34,976 nt of DNA from Pedobacter sp. (GCA_050253415.1 JBFWJC010000010.1:1-34976), one strand, 5' to 3'; positions 2,684 to 34,976 are shown, counted from the first letter of the stretch. Numbers and translations are program-made. Notes: generated by a model from the sequence alone, not told the origin.

Positions 2684-4147
2684 CTAAATCCGAATAATAA
2701 CTCTCTCACCCAACGCATCCTGCAACGCAGCCGCTAATGATTGCCGCGCTTCAACCTCTCCATGCACAAGCCGTACCTCTTTCGGAATGCAGCGCATGCG
2801 ACGCACAAAGTCGACAAGGTTACGCTGATCGGCGTGGGCCGAATAGCCCGAAAGAGTATGGATACGGGCACGGATATCGTAACGTTTTCCATCGAGTACC
2901 ACATAGCCACCACCAGGCCCGTATTGCTGGATATCGCGTCCAGGGGTGCCCATGGCCTGGTACCCGACAAACAGAACATCGGTGCGCGCATCACCGAGGA
3001 GTGTTTTCAAATAGTTGACGATCCGACCACCGCTGCACATTCCGGAAGCAGCGATGACCACACAAGGCCGACCATTGCGCTTTAAATAATCGACGGCCGC
3101 CAGGTGATCCTCATGCTCATCGATAGTGGTCAACTGTTCAAAAGACAGGGGGTGACGCCCTGCCCTTACCCGGCGACAAGCCTCCTTGTCCCAGAAAGCT
3201 CCCAGTTCCCGATAAACCTCGGTAAAACGGTTGGCCAGGGGCGAATCGACGATGATTTCCAGGTCCTCCCACGGCACTCCGGACGTCACGAACCGGGTGC
3301 GGTTGCGATGAATGATATCTTCCAACTCATAGAGCAATTCCTGGGTGCGGCCGATACTGAAAGCCGGCACCAGCACCACGCCCCGATTCTCAAGCGCAGC
3401 CTCGATTATCCCCTGCAACCGGGTGCGCCGCTCACGACGTCCCCCGTGCAAACGATCCCCGTATGTACTCTCCAGCACCAGCACATCCGCTCGCCAGGGC
3501 GAACGCGGTGCCGGCAGCAAAGGCGCATAGGGAGCGCCAAGATCGCCGGAAAAGCACACCAGTGATTGGTGATTAGTGACTAGTGACTGGTCCTTTGTCT
3601 TTTGCAAAGCACCGATGCCTGAGGACAAATGACGATGTTCATCTCGTATTCTGCATTCAACATATGCCGAACCGAGTATATGACCTGCAGGTTGCAGCTT
3701 GATGGACAGTTGCGTCGCCGTTCCGGTGTCAACACCTTGCCACTTTCCGTACGGTAACGGTGATATCAGTGCCTTAAGCCTTGTCAGAAAATTGTCCAGC
3801 AACCGGGGGTCCCGCGTCACCCCGACCTTGATCGCGTCTTCCAAGACCAGCGGCAGCAGAACCGCCGACGGCTCGCTGCAATAGATCGGCCCCTCAAATC
3901 CAGCAGCCAACAGATAAGGAATTCGCCCGACATGATCAAGATGCACATGAGTAACCACCAGCGCCTTGATATGCGCAACGGAAAACTCGATCTCCGGATA
4001 TTCCTCGCTGGCCCCGCCGGTGGAACACTCCTCCCCCTGGAACATTCCGCAATCGATAAGGATACCCGCACCCTCCGCCAGACGCAGTTCGTGGCAGGAA
4101 CCGGTTACGCCGTCGGTGGCGCTATGATTTACAAGGTGAAAGGACAT
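2684..4147 (-). CDS. MBL-fold metallo-hydrolase, beta-CASP / RNA-specificity-domain family
   Basis: VTGSCH, IDCGMFQG, THVHLDHVG (HxHxDH), AGHILGS, FSGDLG, ESTYG, PAFSIGRTQE, SGMCSGGR, YSAHAD, VHGE. Confidence 0.92.
   Translation of the reverse strand: MSFHLVNHSATDGVTGSCHELRLAEGAGILIDCGMFQGEECSTGGASEEYPEIEFSVAHIKALVVTHVHLDHVGRIPYLLAAGFEGPIYCSEPSAVLLPLVLEDAIKVGVTRDPRLLDNFLTRLKALISPLPYGKWQGVDTGTATQLSIKLQPAGHILGSAYVECRIRDEHRHLSSGIGALQKTKDQSLVTNHQSLVCFSGDLGAPYAPLLPAPRSPWRADVLVLESTYGDRLHGGRRERRTRLQGIIEAALENRGVVLVPAFSIGRTQELLYELEDIIHRNRTRFVTSGVPWEDLEIIVDSPLANRFTEVYRELGAFWDKEACRRVRAGRHPLSFEQLTTIDEHEDHLAAVDYLKRNGRPCVVIAASGMCSGGRIVNYLKTLLGDARTDVLFVGYQAMGTPGRDIQQYGPGGGYVVLDGKRYDIRARIHTLSGYSAHADQRNLVDFVRRMRCIPKEVRLVHGEVEARQSLAAALQDALGERVIIRI
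3561..3588. repeat. Heptamer array inserted in frame in the beta-CASP gene
   Basis: agtgatt ggtgatt agtgact agtgact; translates as QSLVTNHQSLV just before FSGDLG. Confidence 0.85.
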
Positions 4148-4156
4148 TTGAGAGGC

Positions 4157-4213
4157 AGAGATTGGTGATTTAGTGACTAGTAATTGGTAATTAGTGATTA
4201 GTAGTTGGTTAAC
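4157..4213. repeat. Left heptamer arm (RGTRAYT) of four-helix-bundle cassette 1
   Basis: agagatt ggtgatt t agtgact agtaatt ggtaatt agtgatt agtagtt ggttaac. Confidence 0.88.
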
Positions 4214-4309
4214 CTTGAACGATATTTGTAATTTATACAGGCCGCGAAAAAAAACATTTTCAAAAAAGCCTTATCGTTACACCTATTACGGGTTTTATCC
4301 CCTTACTAA

Positions 4310-4672
4310 TTATTTTTGAGGCTTTCCAAGCGATCTGATAAGACCTTTGAGCATCTTGGAGATCTGAGAAATATCCTGCTGCAGGCCAAGAAGCTTTTCT
4401 TGTTTCCCAATATTAATCAACTTGGCGATCTCTATCTGGGTATCCAACTCACTGGCTGAGCCTGAAGCGATATGAAGAAATTGAATAAACTCTTTTTTCG
4501 TCTGTCTTGCTGCACCTTCCGCAATATTACTAGCTATTGAAACACCAGCGCGACGCATTTGAGAAGTCAACCCATACTTCTCCTCCGGAGGGAAAACGCG
4601 CGTTAGAGAATAAATTTCTCCGGCCAAAGTCACAGATCGTTTCCAAACATCCAATTGCTTATGGTGTTTCAT
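4310..4672 (-). CDS. Four helix bundle protein (23S rRNA intervening-sequence protein / Avd-like family)
   Basis: 120 aa: LDVWKRS, FPPEEKYGLTSQMRRAGVSIASNIAEGAAR, KEFIQFLHIASGSASELDTQ. Confidence 0.93.
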   Translation of the reverse strand: MKHHKQLDVWKRSVTLAGEIYSLTRVFPPEEKYGLTSQMRRAGVSIASNIAEGAARQTKKEFIQFLHIASGSASELDTQIEIAKLINIGKQEKLLGLQQDISQISKMLKGLIRSLGKPQK

Positions 4673-4766
4673 TGATTTTAAAATCGGGCTCCAAGGACTC
4701 GGATTAGATAACTAACAAAGTCAAGATACCCGACTCTAAACATTAAGTAAAACTATTTTTCCAGCC

Positions 4767-4787
4767 AATCACTAGTCACCAATTACT
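4767..4787. repeat. Right (inverted) heptamer arm of four-helix-bundle cassette 1
   Basis: aatcact agtcacc aattact, the reverse complement of the 4157-4213 unit type. Confidence 0.8.
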
Positions 4788-4797
4788 ATAGTTTGGG

Positions 4798-6294
4798 TTA
4801 TCGCCCGTACTTATCATCAAAACGCACAATATCATCCTCCCCGAGATACGCTCCAGACTGTACCTCAATCAATTCCAGCGGAATCAAGCCGGGATTTTCC
4901 AGGCGGTGTCTGACTCCAAGGGGGATATAGGTCGACTGGTTTTCGGAGAGCACCACGGTATCTTCTCCGTGGGTGATGCGAGCCGTACCTTTGACCACGA
5001 TCCAGTGTTCGGCACGGTGATGGTGCAGTTGCAATGACAGGCTGGCGCCGGGATTGACGGTGATGCGCTTGACCTGAAACCGTTCGCAATGGTCGATGGT
5101 TTCATAACTTCCCCACGGGCGGTTGACCCGGCGGTGCAACAGGGCCTCGCCGCGCCCTTGCGCTTTGAGTTGCTCAACGATAGCCTTCACGTCCTGCGCC
5201 CGATCGCGCGGCGCTACCAGCACCGCATCGGCGGTTTCCACCACGACATGATCTTCAAGGCCCACCGCCGCCACCATGCGTCCGGTGGAGTGCAGATAGC
5301 AATTGCGGCTGTCATGGGTCAGCACATCGCCACGCACGACATTTCCCGCCACATCGGACGGCCCCACTTCCCAAAGCGCCGACCAGGAACCGACATCGCT
5401 CCAGCCAGCATCCAGTGGAATCACCACCGCCTCGGCGGTCTTTTCCATCACCGCATAATCGATGGAATCTTTAGGGCACGCGGCAAACGCCTCGGCATCC
5501 AACCGCACAAAATCAAGATCCCGCTGCGCTTTTTCCAACGCCTCACGACAGCAGGTCAGCATTTCCGGCGCAAACTTCTCCAGCTCTTCCAGATACCGCG
5601 AAGCACGGAACATGAACATGCCGCTGTTCCAGTAGTAGTCACCCGAGGCAAGGTAAGATTCGGCGGTGGCTAGATCAGGCTTCTCCACGAATTCTGCAAT
5701 AGCGAAAGCCGTCGGATCATTAACAACCTTCCCAGGATCACCTTCTGCGGATACTTTAGTCAGGGATTTGAGGTTTTCAACCAATAACCAATCACCAATC
5801 ACTAATGACTGCTTTTGAGCCCGTATGTACCCATACCCCGTCTCAGCTTTTGTCGGCACAATCCCAAACGTAACCAGCTTACCGGCCTGGGCAAGCTCAT
5901 TCCCGTAAACCACCGCGCCACGAAAAGTCTCCGCATCAACAATCACATGATCCGCCGGCAACACCAGCAACACCGGATCATCCCCTGCCCCAAGGGCCTG
6001 CAAGGCGGCCACAGCCACCGCCGGAGCGGTATTGCGCCCCACCGGCTCCAGCATAATCGCTCCGGCCGGGCACCCCGCCTGACGCAACTGCTCCGCAACC
6101 ATAAACCGGTGGCTTTCGTTGCACACCACTAGCGGCTCGGCCAGGTTCTGCAATCCGTTAAGACGAAGCTGGGTTTCCTGCAGCAGTGTAGCGTTATTCA
6201 CCAAAGGCAATAACTGCTTAGGATAAAGTTCGCGGGATAAGGGCCAGAGACGAGTACCAGCGCCGCCGGAAAGTATTATAGGTAATAGGTTCAT
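4798..6294 (-). CDS. manC: Mannose-1-phosphate guanylyltransferase / mannose-6-phosphate isomerase
   Basis: ILSGGAGTRLWPLSRELYPKQ, EPVGRNTAPA, FVEKPD, WNSGMF, WSDVGSW; C-terminal cupin RPWG..HHHRAEHW. Confidence 0.96.
   Translation of the reverse strand: MNLLPIILSGGAGTRLWPLSRELYPKQLLPLVNNATLLQETQLRLNGLQNLAEPLVVCNESHRFMVAEQLRQAGCPAGAIMLEPVGRNTAPAVAVAALQALGAGDDPVLLVLPADHVIVDAETFRGAVVYGNELAQAGKLVTFGIVPTKAETGYGYIRAQKQSLVIGDWLLVENLKSLTKVSAEGDPGKVVNDPTAFAIAEFVEKPDLATAESYLASGDYYWNSGMFMFRASRYLEELEKFAPEMLTCCREALEKAQRDLDFVRLDAEAFAACPKDSIDYAVMEKTAEAVVIPLDAGWSDVGSWSALWEVGPSDVAGNVVRGDVLTHDSRNCYLHSTGRMVAAVGLEDHVVVETADAVLVAPRDRAQDVKAIVEQLKAQGRGEALLHRRVNRPWGSYETIDHCERFQVKRITVNPGASLSLQLHHHRAEHWIVVKGTARITHGEDTVVLSENQSTYIPLGVRHRLENPGLIPLELIEVQSGAYLGEDDIVRFDDKYGR
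5776..5810. repeat. Heptamer array inserted in frame in manC
   Basis: ttcaacc aataacc aatcacc aatcact aatgact; translates as QSLVIGDWLLVE between GYGYI and FVEKP. Confidence 0.8.
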
Positions 6295-27491: not shown

Positions 27492-27558
27492 GATCAAGTC
27501 CTTTCAGTAAGGGCTGAACACCTACACCGTAAACACAAATCAAATTCTGTTAAAGCAT

Positions 27559-27670
27559 TAGCCGCAGATGCACGCAGATTTTCGCAGATCAGACCCAACC
27601 TATAAGCGAATATGTTAGTTCAGACCTTGCTTGGTTTCCATCTGCGGCAATCCGCTCTTATCAGCGGCTA
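27559..27670. repeat. Palindromic 10-nt-period element, downstream flank of the GxxExxY gene
   Basis: tagccgcagatgcacgcagattttcgcagat ... atctgcggcaatccgctcttatcagcggcta. Confidence 0.9.
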
Positions 27671-27736
27671 TTAAGCTTTTGTGTTTTTCTTGCCCCATGT
27701 TCACGTAGATTTTTGCAAATCAGTAGCCAATAAATT

Positions 27737-28120
27737 CTAAAGTCCGTTCACCACACGCTTAATATGGACTTTATCTGCCCCATAATTAATCAAAAGGCCT
27801 AGTTTTTTCCTTGTGGCTTTCAGATAATTTAGGCACTGAGCCAAATGAATATTATCAAGATTTTTGACTGTCTTAAGTTCTACGATGATCTCTCCTTCGA
27901 TAAAGAGGTCAGCGATATAGTCACCGACAACAACGTCATTATAGTAAACCTTAATCGGTACCTGTCCCTCAACTTTTAGACCGGCTTTTTTTAATTCATG
28001 AGACAAGGCATTTTCATAAACTTTTTCGAGAAAACCGTATCCAAGTTTTTTGGCAACAGTGTATGCACCCCCGATGATCTGTTCAGTTACACTTTTAAAG
28101 TACGCCTCGTCACGTACCAT
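27737..28120 (-). CDS. GxxExxY protein (PD-(D/E)XK nuclease-like)
   Basis: 127 aa with GFLEKVY, YIADLFIEGEIIVELK (D...ExK), AQCLNYLKAT, GLLINY. Confidence 0.93.
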   Translation of the reverse strand: MVRDEAYFKSVTEQIIGGAYTVAKKLGYGFLEKVYENALSHELKKAGLKVEGQVPIKVYYNDVVVGDYIADLFIEGEIIVELKTVKNLDNIHLAQCLNYLKATRKKLGLLINYGADKVHIKRVVNGL

Positions 28121-28189
28121 GCAAGCCTCAAGAGTCAGGTTTAAAAATGTCTAGTCCTATCTGTGGTTAACATCTTTTGAGTTCTATTC

Positions 28190-28304
28190 TTAACCGCTGA
28201 TTCACGCAGAATTTCGCAGATCAAACTCTAACCCTGAAGACCATTCTATCTGTTCAGCCTTGCTTAGGTTTTATCTGCGCCAATCCGCTTTTATCTGCGG
28301 TTAA
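28190..28304. repeat. Palindromic 10-nt-period element, upstream flank of the GxxExxY gene
   Basis: ttaaccgctgattcacgcagaatttcgcagat ... atctgcgccaatccgcttttatctgcggttaa; direct-repeat homologue of 27559-27670 including the spacer. Confidence 0.9.
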
Positions 28305-28694
28305 TGGCTTTGGAATTTGATCTTAAACACTGACGTAAAAGGATTCTCCCAGGATATCACCCTAAACCAAAGCTCGGTTAAAATCAGATGTTTATCCGGC
28401 CGATTCTGCGTGATTCGCGTTCTATTGCTTTTTGCCATTTGAATAAAAGGTCTTGAATGAGACGAGATCGAATGTTTTTAAAAGTAGAAATTTCCCTCAA
28501 TAAATTTAGACAAAATTAATCGAACAAAAGAATAGTGCAGACAATACTCTTGAAAATACAAAACTACAATTAAAAATTTTTCAATTAGGAGCCAACAGAC
28601 TAGCAGGCATGGGCGGGAATTTAAGGGAGAGTTTGCCTCTCGTATGCTGGCGATAGGCCCTGTTGCAGCGGCTTCGCCTGCCATTGAAAAGTGC

Positions 28695-29388: not shown

Positions 29389-31275
29389 CTACCCGAAAAG
29401 CTCCCGTACTATTTTTTCCGCCAGTTCTTCCGGGCTGGCTTCGGCACCATTGACGGTGATTTCGGGGCTTTCCGGTGCTTCGTAGGCGGAGTCTATACCG
29501 GTGAAGTTTTTAAGTTGACCTGAGCGGGCTTTTTTATACAACCCTTTGGGATCGCGTTGCTCGCAAACTTCCAGGGGAGTGTTCACAAATATCTCGACAA
29601 ACTCCCCTTGTTCTACCAGATCCCTTGCCAGTTGCCGTTCGCTTTTGAAGGGCGAGATAAACGATACAAGCACTACAAGACCTGCATCTACGAATAGTTT
29701 GGCGGTCTCCGCAACGCGGCGAATGTTTTCAACGCGATCGGCATCGGTGAATCCAAGGTCGCGGTTAAGACCGTGGCGCACGTTGTCGCCATCGAGGATG
29801 TAGCTGTGTTTGCCCATGGAGTGGAGTTTTTTCTCCACAAGGTTGGCGATGGTCGATTTGCCGGATCCGGAAAGTCCGGTAAACCACAGCACGCGAGGCT
29901 TTTGCCCTTTTTGCTCGGCACGGGACTTTTTATCGATATCGATAGACTGCCAGTGGATGTTGCTGGCACGCCGCAAGGGAAAGTCGATCATGCCGGCGCC
30001 TACGGTGGCGTTGGTAAACCGATCGATGAGGATAAAACTGCCGGTGGCGCGATTTTCCTGGTAGGGATCGAAGGAAAGGGCTTTGCTGAGACTGAAATTA
30101 CAAACCCCTACCTCGTTGAGTTGCAGGGTTTTGCCTGGCTCATGTTGCAAGGTATTGACGTTGACCTTGTATTTCAGTTCGCTGATCTGGGCAGGCAGTG
30201 TGGTGGAACCAATTTTGATCAGATAACTGCGACCAGGCAGCAAAGGCACTTCGTGCATCCAGACAAGATGTGCCCTGAACTGATCCGCATGGGTCGGCCT
30301 GGCCAGGGGATCCGCAAGCAGATCGCCTCGACTGATATCGATTTCATCGGAGAGGGTCAAAGTCACAGCCTGCCCTCCGACAGCTTGCGGCAGATCGCCA
30401 TCCATCGTCACGATGCGCGCAACGGTGCTTTTTTGCCCGGACGACGGCACCACCACTTCATCACCGGGACGCAGGGTACCGGAAGCTATAGTGCCTGCAA
30501 AGCCGCGAAAATCGAGATTAGGACGATTCACCATTTGCACTGCCATGCGAAAAGGCTTGTTCGCTACGTCATCGTCTATTTGAACCGTTTCCAGATACTG
30601 CAGCAGCGTCGGACCCTGATACCAGGAGGTATGACCGTTGGCATCGATGACATTGTCACCGCGCAGGGCTGAAATGGGTATGGCCGTGATCTGCCCGAAG
30701 CCAAGGTCTTTGGCGAATGCTTCGTATTCTTCGCGGATGGCATGAAAGCGGCTGGCGGAATAATCGACCAAATCCATTTTGTTAATGGCGAGTACCACAT
30801 TGCGAATCCCGACCAGCGACACAAGATAGCTATGACGCCTGGTCTGGGTCAAAATACCTTTACGGGCATCAATGAGAATCACGGCCACATCGGCGGTGGA
30901 AGCCCCGGTGACCATGTTGCGTGTGTACTGCTCGTGACCGGGGGTATCGGCAACGATAAATTTACGCTTGTCGGTGGAAAAGAAACGATAGGCCACATCG
31001 ATGGTAATGCCCTGCTCCCGCTCAGCCTGCAGCCCGTCGAGTAAAAGTGCATAGTCGACATCTTCACCTTGGGTGCCTACCCTTTTGCTGTCGGCCTCCA
31101 AAGCGGCGAGCTGATCTTCAAAGATCAGCTTTGAATCCCACAACAAACGGCCGATGAGGGTACTCTTTCCGTCATCAACGCTACCGCAGGTTATAAAGCG
31201 CAGCATCGATTTTTCTTCTTGTTGTTTCAGATATTTGTGGATGTCGGATGCTATTAACTCAGATTGGTGGGACAT
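29389..31275 (-). CDS. cysNC: Sulfate adenylyltransferase subunit 1 fused to adenylylsulfate kinase (CysN/CysC, NodQ-like)
   Basis: [42 protein letters not shown]-terminal [26 protein letters not shown]. Start at ATG 31275 with GGAG RBS. Confidence 0.96.
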
Positions 31276-31296
31276 ATTGAAATCTCCGATTTCAAT

Positions 31297-31331
31297 AGCT
31301 TCAAGCCTCAAGCTTCAAGCCATAAGTTTAA
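31297..31331. repeat. Left heptamer arm (AGCTTCA type) of four-helix-bundle cassette 2
   Basis: agcttca agcctca agcttca agccata agtttaa. Confidence 0.82.
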
Positions 31332-31342
31332 ATTCCATAGAT

Positions 31343-31687
31343 TCAAGGACGATCTATGGATTTCATTAATCCTGTCAACATGGAGGATATTTCGCGGGTT
31401 TCACTCAACCAATCTTGTGCAACCGATTTCATTATGTAATCAATATCCATTCCGATATAAATCTGTGTTCGTAATTCTGCACAAGAAGCTCTCGCTATAT
31501 TGAGAAAATGAAGTTTTTCCTTATCGGAAACCCTTTCCATACCTTCAGCAATATTACTCGGCACCGAAAGACCGGAGCGAGTTATCTGATCCTTGAAACC
31601 AAAATCTCTCAAGTCTGCTAGTTGGCGATAAATATCTGCAGATAATTCACGTGACCTCTTCCAAACCAAAAGCTTTTCAAAGTCCAT
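31343..31687 (-). CDS. Four helix bundle protein (23S rRNA intervening-sequence protein / Avd-like family), paralogue 2
   Basis: 114 aa: FEKLLVWKRS, DFGFKDQITRSGLSVPSNIAEG.ER, FLNIARASCAELRTQ. Confidence 0.93.
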   Translation of the reverse strand: MDFEKLLVWKRSRELSADIYRQLADLRDFGFKDQITRSGLSVPSNIAEGMERVSDKEKLHFLNIARASCAELRTQIYIGMDIDYIMKSVAQDWLSETREISSMLTGLMKSIDRP

Positions 31688-31715
31688 TTTCTTTCCTTAA
31701 AAGAAGCCACAATCT

Positions 31716-31757
31716 TTTAGCTTACAGCTTGTAGCTGATGGCTTGAAGCTTGGAACT
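31716..31757. repeat. Right (inverted) heptamer arm (TGAAGCT type) of four-helix-bundle cassette 2
   Basis: tttagct tacagct tgtagct gatggct tgaagct tggaact. Confidence 0.82.
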
Positions 31758-31783
31758 AACAGGAAGGTTATTTCGGATCCTGA

Positions 31784-32689
31784 TCAGAAATAACCTTCCT
31801 GTTTCTTCTTCTCCATCGACCCGGCCTGATCGTGGTCGATGAGGCGGCCCTGGCGTTCGGAGGTGCGGGTCAGGAGCATCTCCTGGATGATTTCCGGCAG
31901 GGTGTCGGCGGTCGATTCAACGGCGGCGGTCAGGGGGTAGCAGCCCAGGGTACGGAAGCGTACGGATTTCATCTCTACCTTTTCCCCCGGCTTGAGTTCC
32001 AGGCGATCATCATCGACCAGGATCAACATGCCGTCGCGCTTTACCACGGGGCGCTCCTTGGAGTAGTACAGGGGCACGATGGGGATTTGCTCAAGGTAGA
32101 TATATTGCCAAATATCGAGTTCGGTCCAGTTGGACAGCGGAAAGGCACGGATACTCTCCCCCTGGCTGACTTTAGCATTATAAAGGTTCCAGAGCTCGGG
32201 GCGTTGGCTCTTGGGGTCCCAGCGGTGAGTGGCGGTACGAAAGGAAAAAATCCGTTCTTTGGCACGGGACTTTTCCTCGTCGCGTCGCGCGCCGCCAAAG
32301 GCGGCATCGAACTTGTATTTATCCAGGGCCTGTTTGAGGCCCTCTGTCTTCATGACGTCGGTGTACAATGCCGACCCATGGGTAAAGGGGGAGATCCCAC
32401 GATTGACGCCATCTTCGTTGGTATGGATAAGCAGATCAAAGCCGTATTCCGCAGCAAGGTTGTCGCGAAATTCGATCATTTCCCGGAACTTCCAGGTAGT
32501 ATCGACATGCATCAATGGAAAAGGCGGACGAGCCGGATAAAAGGCCTTACGCGCCAGGTGCAGCATTACGGAGGAATCTTTACCGATAGAATACAGCATC
32601 ACCGGATTGTCGAATTCTGCGGCGACTTCGCGAATAATATGGATACTTTCCGCCTCGAGTTGGCGAAGATGGGTCATGTTCACTGTCAT
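31784..32689 (-). CDS. cysD: Sulfate adenylyltransferase subunit 2
   Basis: [58 protein letters not shown]. Confidence 0.97.
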
Positions 32690-34734: not shown

Positions 34735-34976
34735 TGTAACTAGTGATTCGTGATTGGCTTTCACAGCAAACCCGCTCAATTCATGGACTCGCAAGAGCCT
34801 ACAAAAAGAGAATAAGGCTTAAAAGTTTTAGGTTCTCCACCGGTCACCAGTCACCAGTCACCAGTCACCAGTCACCAGTCACCAGTCACCAGTCACCAGT
34901 CACCAGTCACCAGTCACCAGTCACCAGTCACCAGTCACCAGTCACCAGTCACCAGTCACCAGTCACCAGTCACCAG
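34735..34976. repeat. Heptamer element: short RGTGATT arm plus perfect (AGTCACC)x18 array truncated by the window end
   Basis: tgtaact agtgatt cgtgatt (34735-34755); ggtcacc (34842-34848) then 18 exact AGTCACC from 34849. Confidence 0.95.

Follow-up and report, generated by a model that had tools for sequence, protein, structure and literature searches.

Among the closest known relatives of the element reported here are intervening sequences (IVSs) of 23S rRNA. In Coxiella burnetii, the IVS carries an S23p ORF and a 28-bp terminal stem that RNase III cuts at mid-stem in vitro, and direct heptameric repeats are found in its 5′ region (PMC4990558). The same report, which cites an ORF-bearing 23S rRNA IVS of Leptospira, contains the only published link between heptameric repeats and IVSs that we found. 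Proteins of the corresponding family, PF05635, have been described in a review of diversity-generating retroelements (DGRs) as resembling Avd, the accessory protein of these systems (PMC10053308). Heptamer repeats have also been studied on their own account. The TAACTGA repeats of Beggiatoaceae are tandem, mostly intergenic, often located near gene starts and prone to break assemblies, with a single inverted set; MacGregor (2015) proposed translational control for those lying ahead of start codons, and that paper does not mention four-helix-bundle or S23 proteins (PMC4679880). In the literature covered by our search, which excluded subscription journals, no publication reported heptamer arms around PF05635 genes located outside rRNA.

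The stretch of DNA analysed here, hereafter the window, is the whole of contig C10 (34,976 nt) of a 4.1-Mb Pedobacter sp. genome that is 100% complete by marker genes; we refer to this genome as G000 and to related genomes as G001, G002 and so on. The contig is a polysaccharide locus comprising rml genes, manC, glycosyltransferase genes, Wzy, a flippase and cysD/NC, and its GC content is 46%, compared with 51-55% in the large contigs. It starts with (CTTGTCA)x18 (1-127) and ends with (CACCAGT)x20 (34838-34976), both reading GTCAC on the plus strand, and these terminal arrays run on into contigs C7 (at its end) and C8 (at its start). Three consecutive genes lie on the minus strand in the part of the window that concerns us: manC (4798-6294), encoding a mannose-1-phosphate guanylyltransferase / mannose-6-phosphate isomerase with the Pfam domains NTP_transferase and MannoseP_isomer; a gene for a 120-aa protein (4310-4672); and a downstream gene that Pfam identifies as a beta-CASP/RMMBL metallo-hydrolase (2684-4147). 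An earlier note on this DNA had described the small gene as enclosed by inverted heptamer arms in a cassette that fills the manC/beta-CASP junction, and this description proved correct in every particular. Ten nucleotides separate the manC stop codon (4798-4800) from the nearer arm, and 9 nt separate the other edge of the cassette, at 4157, from the beta-CASP start codon (4145-4147), which are the distances that the note had given.

Read in the sense of the gene, that is, on the minus strand, the cassette opens with a 5′ arm of three heptamers (4767-4787; AGTAATT, GGTGACT, AGTGATT, which appear on the plus strand as the complement units AATCACT, AGTCACC and AATTACT). The 5′ spacer between this arm and the start codon (4673-4766) is conserved with the cassettes of G004 and G005B and contains a small hairpin (4738-4716) and no evident Shine-Dalgarno sequence. 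Downstream of the ORF, the 3′ spacer (4213-4309) is not conserved with the cassettes of these two genomes, named type I below. The 3′ arm (4164-4212), just upstream of the beta-CASP start, consists of about seven degenerate heptamers that read RGTRAYT on the plus strand (GGTGATT, AGTGACT, AGTAATT, GGTAATT, AGTGATT and AGTAGTT plus a partial unit); TRF detected a period of 7 at 4170-4203 and a period of 21 at 4161-4209. GC content is 0.37-0.45 across 4100-4799 and 0.53-0.65 in the flanks, in accordance with the AT-richness remarked on before, and the cassette is a discrete AT-rich block bounded by the outer ends of its arms. The small gene is its sole ORF. Inside it we counted 0 sigma-70-like promoters and no convincing terminator. 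Transposase or integrase domains were found neither in the cassette nor among the 35 window ORFs scanned with Pfam, and no direct repeat indicative of a target duplication was seen by eye at the outer ends; on both points the earlier note holds. An insertion sequence or a MITE was rejected on these grounds, the sole ORF being a PF05635 gene. The cassette probably has no promoter of its own and would be transcribed with the operon by read-through from manC.

The 120-aa protein matched PF05635 (23S_rRNA_IVP) with an E value of 7.8e-39 and 132.6 bits (cut-off 33.8) over profile positions 1-106 of 106, and NCBIfam TIGR02436 ('four helix bundle protein') with an E value of 7.8e-39 and 132.3 bits (cut-off 24). 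It thus belongs to both families, above the curated cut-offs and across the full domain. Weak matches were obtained to PF22296 (bAvd; E 4e-5, below cut-off) and NF033474 (E 7.5e-4, far below cut-off). The nearest solved relatives are 2GSC (E 8.8e-28) and 2RLD, for each of which five chains have been deposited. Thus the protein shares with Avd a homologous four-helix-bundle fold and five-chain solved relatives; unlike Avd systems, the genome has no reverse transcriptase. There were 0 matches to PF00078 in its 4.1 Mb, and on this basis we discarded both a DGR and a reverse-transcriptase or telomerase-like origin of the arrays. Only two PF05635 genes are present in G000, both inside the window; their products are 39% identical, and the genome holds no near-identical second copy. 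Comparison of the gene with its counterparts in G004 and G005B gave dN/dS values of 0.06-0.11 (dS 0.5-2.2), and we conclude that it is kept by purifying selection.

We then consider whether the arms pair, on which the earlier reading of the cassette depended. An inverted-repeat search located the best pairing between 4178-4199 and 4767-4788, 22 nt at 91% complementarity, so that terminal inverted repeats can close a long stem around the ORF, as in IVSs. Folding of the RNA of 4140-4810(-) paired the arms in both the minimum-energy fold and the centroid (z = -2.5; 0/20 shuffles folded as well). The arms are thus able to close a stem of ~22 bp. Scored as the ungapped inverted-repeat match between the 250-nt flanks of the gene core, the cassette reached 17, while 300 random positions, all from this same genome, had a maximum of 14.0 and a 99th percentile of 11.5. 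Pairing may stem from the presence of one heptamer family in both arms and not from selection for a stem. Among arm mismatches, G.U outnumbered A/C in the sense RNA by 83 to 65, which is not significant (p 0.16), and 159/307 mismatches were of the transversion type; a selection on the stem specific to RNA was accordingly not retained.

The architecture agrees with that of the Coxiella IVS (PMC4990558), as the earlier note had proposed for ORF-bearing 23S rRNA IVSs in general. In both cases a PF05635/S23p ORF lies in a loop closed by a 22-28-bp stem of terminal inverted repeats, with heptamers in the arms, and the whole unit, of ~430-630 nt, lacks a mobility enzyme. Three differences stand out. 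The cassette lies between protein-coding genes, unlike the Coxiella IVS in helix 45, and an IVS by location (helix 9, 25 or 45) was dismissed since an Rfam scan of the window at gathering thresholds returned only a tRNA (206-289). The Coxiella ORF is reportedly decaying, whereas that of the cassette is under purifying selection. Finally, excision by RNase III has been demonstrated for IVSs (PMC4990558) and would apply to the cassette by analogy. The terminal stem would loop the cassette out of the transcript and RNase III would probably cut it, as in rRNA; looping out and cutting together could be the reason why an insertion between coupled genes is tolerated. We therefore favour, with a probability of about 0.6, an exchangeable cassette of IVS type within the polysaccharide operon, co-transcribed with it and with arms that form a stem.

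Whether such a block is exchangeable can be judged from the manC 3′ junction of sister genomes. A PF05635 gene directly follows manC in G000, G002, G004, G005 (at two paralogous loci) and G008, and in all of these except G000 the next gene after the cassette is that of phosphomannomutase. Two cassette types are found. Type I (G000, G004 and G005B) has proteins 80-89% identical to one another and RGTGAYT arms, and runs in the same orientation as manC in G000 and in the opposite one in G004 and G005B. Type II (G002, G005A and G008) has proteins 83-87% identical and GTCMTTT / ACAAATG arms, and is oriented as manC in G002 and G005A and opposed to it in G008. Identity between proteins of the two types is 25-28%, and 3/6 cassettes at this junction are opposed to manC. 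By blastn, homology of the G000 cassette to those of G004 and G005B, inverted relative to manC, begins where the arm has its outer end, at 4786-4788, and extends through arm, 5′ spacer and ORF as far as 4312-4323, where the ORF ends. In G005, a dS of 0.41 separates the two manC copies, and one is followed by a type II and the other by a type I cassette, which indicates that cassettes have been exchanged at a conserved junction.

Between species, the type I gene and manC show dS values of similar magnitude (0.5-2.2 and 0.9-1.1, respectively), so that a long residence at the junction is likely; judged by these distances, the type I pattern probably reflects long vertical residence and not recent movement. 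A gene stably vertical at this site had been named in the earlier note as contrary to its reading. This is partly borne out by the three species of the genus that carry type I 3′ of manC, while the differing orientation and the unrelated type found in other genomes speak for exchange. The search for relatives with manC directly adjoining the beta-CASP gene, also proposed there, gave no empty site among 20 relatives (0/20), and insertion at the exact junction is for that reason deduced from other junctions. The reverse order occurs in G007, where beta-CASP precedes manC by 129 nt, and in G009, where ~560 nt of repeats lie between them. As an observation apart, a manC copy of G005 is interrupted at ~aa 165, the site of the heptamer insert described below, by ~1.1 kb (L056 3373-4486) carrying a 325-aa ORF with rve integrase-core domains, which identifies this insert as an insertion sequence.

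The second cassette of the window (31297-31750, minus strand) occupies the junction between cysD (31784-32689), which adjoins it, and cysNC, on its other side. Its PF05635 gene (31343-31687) is flanked by AAGCTNN-type arms, 31297-31332 and 31715-31750, which are 36 nt long and 78% complementary and belong to a heptamer family other than that of the first cassette. Among close relatives this junction forms a series. Five sites are empty, with overlapping stop and start codons in the form TGATG or TAATG (G003, G008, G009, G011 and G024). ORF-less insertions of 59-131 nt are present in G001, G002, G004, G005, G007 and G021 and at a paralogous locus on contig C5 of G000; inverted heptamer arms were recognised by eye in most of them, of a family that differs per genome, and are unclear in G021, G005 and G007. 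Full cassettes are found on C10 of G000 and in G006. The cysD/cysN series is the clearest evidence of gain, loss or reduction at exact gene junctions. With the manC junction, it shows at the level of sequence both exchange between cassette types and gain and loss at junctions. The reading of the earlier note, an IVS-like cassette or a mobile unit, is thus partly supported: the IVS-type architecture, the pairing of the arms in silico and the discrete, exchangeable block all stand. Spread or exchange would proceed by recombination at heptamer arrays and not by a transposase.

Some further features of these junctions deserve mention. At least seven pairs of inverted heptamer arrays that enclose no gene, with loop lengths of 2-77 nt, are present in G000. 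Those with loops of 33-67 nt lie at C2 763757-763847, C6 106086-106170, C2 429202-429290 and C5 93169-93287, and several of them are of the GTCMTTT / ACAAATG family, whose type II four-helix-bundle gene is absent from G000. At cysNC (start region examined, 31273-31311), ATG 31275 is favoured as the true start over the listed TTG 31311, which falls inside the arm, on the basis of the alignment of relatives (MAHQSELIAEDIH) and of a GGAG 8 nt upstream. In several genomes an inverted copy of the final 12-25 nt of the upstream gene comes right after its stop codon. This was seen after cysD in G000 C10, G006, G000 C5 and G001 and after manC in G002, G005A and G008 (window 31753-31808; L061 2925-2975; L056 13815-13870; L059 3370-3420). 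The three manC copies follow the coding sequence of their own genome, and the changes are thus compensatory; the inverted copy may form a hairpin that shields the 3′ end or be the footprint left by an insertion.

A PF05635 match was found in 28 of 41 related genomes. Leaving out the two genes of the window, 20 of the 22 full-length loci of relatives scored above the 99th percentile and 17 above the maximum of the random positions, which came from the single genome G000. A set from many phyla (80 loci, 78 scorable) gave 63/78 and 54/78 against the same one-genome controls, leaving 15 of these loci and two of those of relatives with no arms above the 99th percentile. Of the loci from viral contigs, 18 of the 28 scored exceeded the random maximum. 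Heptamer sequence varies widely from locus to locus and the two arms of one locus match, and the first cassette has this same design. Units of 8 nt in place of 7 nt occur in the arms of some PF05635 loci of other phyla (L083, L099, L116 and L118). To what extent might this layout be a mere by-product, in which heptamer microsatellites born by slippage gather where a small AT-rich gene sits and their inverted arrangement has no function? The genome is indeed full of heptamer arrays, some of them perfect over 15-26 copies and some beside unrelated genes such as those of ABC-transporter ATPases, and the absence of an RNA-specific pairing signal would also be expected. Against it, inverted arms matched to their locus recur in the proportions just given across phyla and viral contigs of very different genome composition. 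When flanks were paired across loci, the scores were far lower (median 8.0, as opposed to 16.8 for own arm pairs), and 64/78 loci lay above the 95th percentile of 300 such pairings. Arm polarity is also fixed: of the 69 loci with unequal G and C counts, the strand reading inward is G-rich in 62 and C-rich in 7. These data already disfavour a by-product, which we regard as very unlikely.

Stop codons in all three frames were present in 54/144 inward strands of arms, compared with 25/144 outward strands and 290/2880 shuffles. They occur in both arms of the first cassette and not in those of the second, and a role of the arms as a three-frame stop was set aside because 54/144 represents a tendency and not a rule. 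With respect to both flanking frames, which were called crudely, the gene was co-oriented in 48 of the 78 loci, opposed in 7, mixed in 16 and unscorable in 7. This distribution bears on the possibility that the arms are recombination sites that flip the segment and so alter read-through transcription of beta-CASP and of the glycosyltransferase genes after it, resulting in phase variation of a surface polysaccharide. Such a switch would account for the fact that, at one junction of sister genomes, each cassette type is found in either orientation, and a polysaccharide locus would be a natural setting for it. Nevertheless, neither the cassette nor its immediate surroundings contain a recombinase gene, no internal promoter or terminator would make orientation matter, and across phyla the gene is biased towards the direction of the operon. 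We consider an invertible switch highly improbable, and our estimate for it is the lowest of all.

Similarity between arms, measured on 4-mers, rises with protein identity among pairs below 60% identity (rho 0.16; 0/300 label permutations reached this value). At such identities neutral DNA should be randomised, and the correlation is nonetheless weak and partly expected from co-inheritance. In the closest cross-phylum relatives, L062 (58% identity), L063 (57%) and L067 (52%), the heptamers are of GTGAY type. That protein identity tracks arm similarity suggests that the arms may be recognised by the protein, which, as a presumptive pentamer, would bind its own heptamer family.

Heptamer arrays extend well beyond the cassettes. 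G000 contains 75 period-7 arrays with at least three copies (41 GTCAC-like, 21 AGCT-like and 13 other), and the two major families are those of the arms of its two cassettes. Long arrays as borders of other cargo were considered and dropped, the pairs checked enclosing two ABC-transporter ATPases and one ORF with no Pfam match. All genomes among the 41 with at least 14 matches to GTCACNN x4 or AGCTNNN x4 (G000, G002, G004, G005, G006, G008, G030 and G031) have PF05635 genes, and the 13 that have no PF05635 match contain at most 6 four-unit matches each, although these genomes are mutually related, so that the counts lack independence. In G004, type I cassettes are present without any GTCACNN x4 array. 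Dispersed heptamer repeats are also known in cyanobacteria, as the STRR sequences, and small palindromic elements capable of in-frame insertion into genes include the Rickettsia palindromic elements, MITEs and REPs. The gene-less hairpins at junctions and the arrays lying in frame within manC and beta-CASP behave like these elements, but consist of tandem 7-mers of variable sequence with no single consensus and no target duplication seen. Like the TAACTGA repeats (PMC4679880), the arrays are tandem, mostly intergenic, often near starts and assembly-breaking, and one cassette of a sister genome (L016) uses AACTGAT units; unlike them, they form inverted pairs around a gene.

The in-frame arrays lie at aa 163-172 of manC (5780-5806; TCATTAG, TGATTGG, TGATTGG, TTATTGG) and, in the opposite orientation, at aa 187-197 of beta-CASP (3561-3588; CAGTCAC, TAGTCAC, TAATCAC, CAATCAC). 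They constitute a nested inverted pair 2.2 kb apart, of the heptamer family of the first cassette, and in the units in codon phase 1 of both arrays the stop has been removed by substitution (TGA to TCA or TTA; TAA to CAA). The beta-CASP homologue of G024 has no aa 167-196. Alignment of ManC revealed a hypervariable insert at the site of the array; the heptamer that builds it changes between almost all genomes, and the insert of G008 adds ~70 residues. The heptamer of this insert is that of the arms of the downstream cassette in G000, G005A and G008; in G006 it resembles the arms of the only cassette of that genome, after cysD, and in G002 and G004 it matches neither. The window also holds a third cassette-like gene, encoding a GxxExxY / PDDEXK_3 protein (TIGR04256, PF13366; 27737-28120, minus strand) within the region 27556-28306. 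It is flanked on both sides by palindromic elements with CGCAGAT-type units at ~10-nt spacing (27559-27670 and 28190-28304), and its outer arms (27556-27598 and 28264-28306) are 77% complementary. As this gene is unique in the genome, all three such small genes of G000 lie in one 35-kb locus.

The coincidence between array families and cassette arms admits two further explanations, neither of which we hold to be likely. The chief rival is that of a resident regulator: a host protein would bind the arrays as RNA or DNA, the dispersed arrays, many of them near gene starts, would be its sites, its own arms would serve for autoregulation, and nothing would be mobile. The 41 GTCAC-like and 21 AGCT-like arrays out of 75 would then correspond to the two PF05635 proteins, the restriction of array-rich genomes to carriers of the family and the strong purifying selection on the gene would follow, and translational control has been proposed for the TAACTGA repeats (MacGregor 2015; PMC4679880). 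What a regulator does not explain is that one junction holds two types unrelated to each other, each in either orientation, a pattern which, with the empty, hairpin and full states of cysD/cysN, points to gain, loss and exchange. Nor does it account for cassettes that are AT-rich relative to their host, for relatives in many phyla and viral contigs, for G004, which has the cassettes and no array of the four-unit type, or for arrays in frame within coding regions. The other explanation goes further than the IVS-type cassette that we prefer and is put forward tentatively, as a doubtful extension. The protein would be a sequence-specific binder of tandem heptamers and, together with its arms, a new kind of selfish element that has no transposase. 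Arrays of its heptamer family would be seeded and lengthened by it throughout the genome, in-frame sites within genes included, and recombination would carry its gene into gene-less hairpins of matching sequence. Such an element would suit the fixed arm polarity described above, which fits arrays formed on host DNA ends, as though repeats had been attached to 3′ ends at a break.

No function has been assigned to PF05635, a very large family, and dispersed heptamer repeats and rRNA intervening sequences are two old, unexplained features of bacteria that are here joined with it in one unit. The locus and its relatives offer natural test material: a junction in empty, hairpin and full states, another with two cassette types in both orientations, and in-frame arrays in two enzymes. 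If RNase III cuts the stem of the exchangeable IVS-type cassette, this would allow an operon or an rRNA to take up an extra gene and remain intact. If the protein binds the arrays, it may be the missing factor behind the spread of heptamer repeats, and a selfish heptamer binder, if such it is, would account at once for the intervening sequences of rRNA and for the heptamer repeats dispersed in bacterial genomes.
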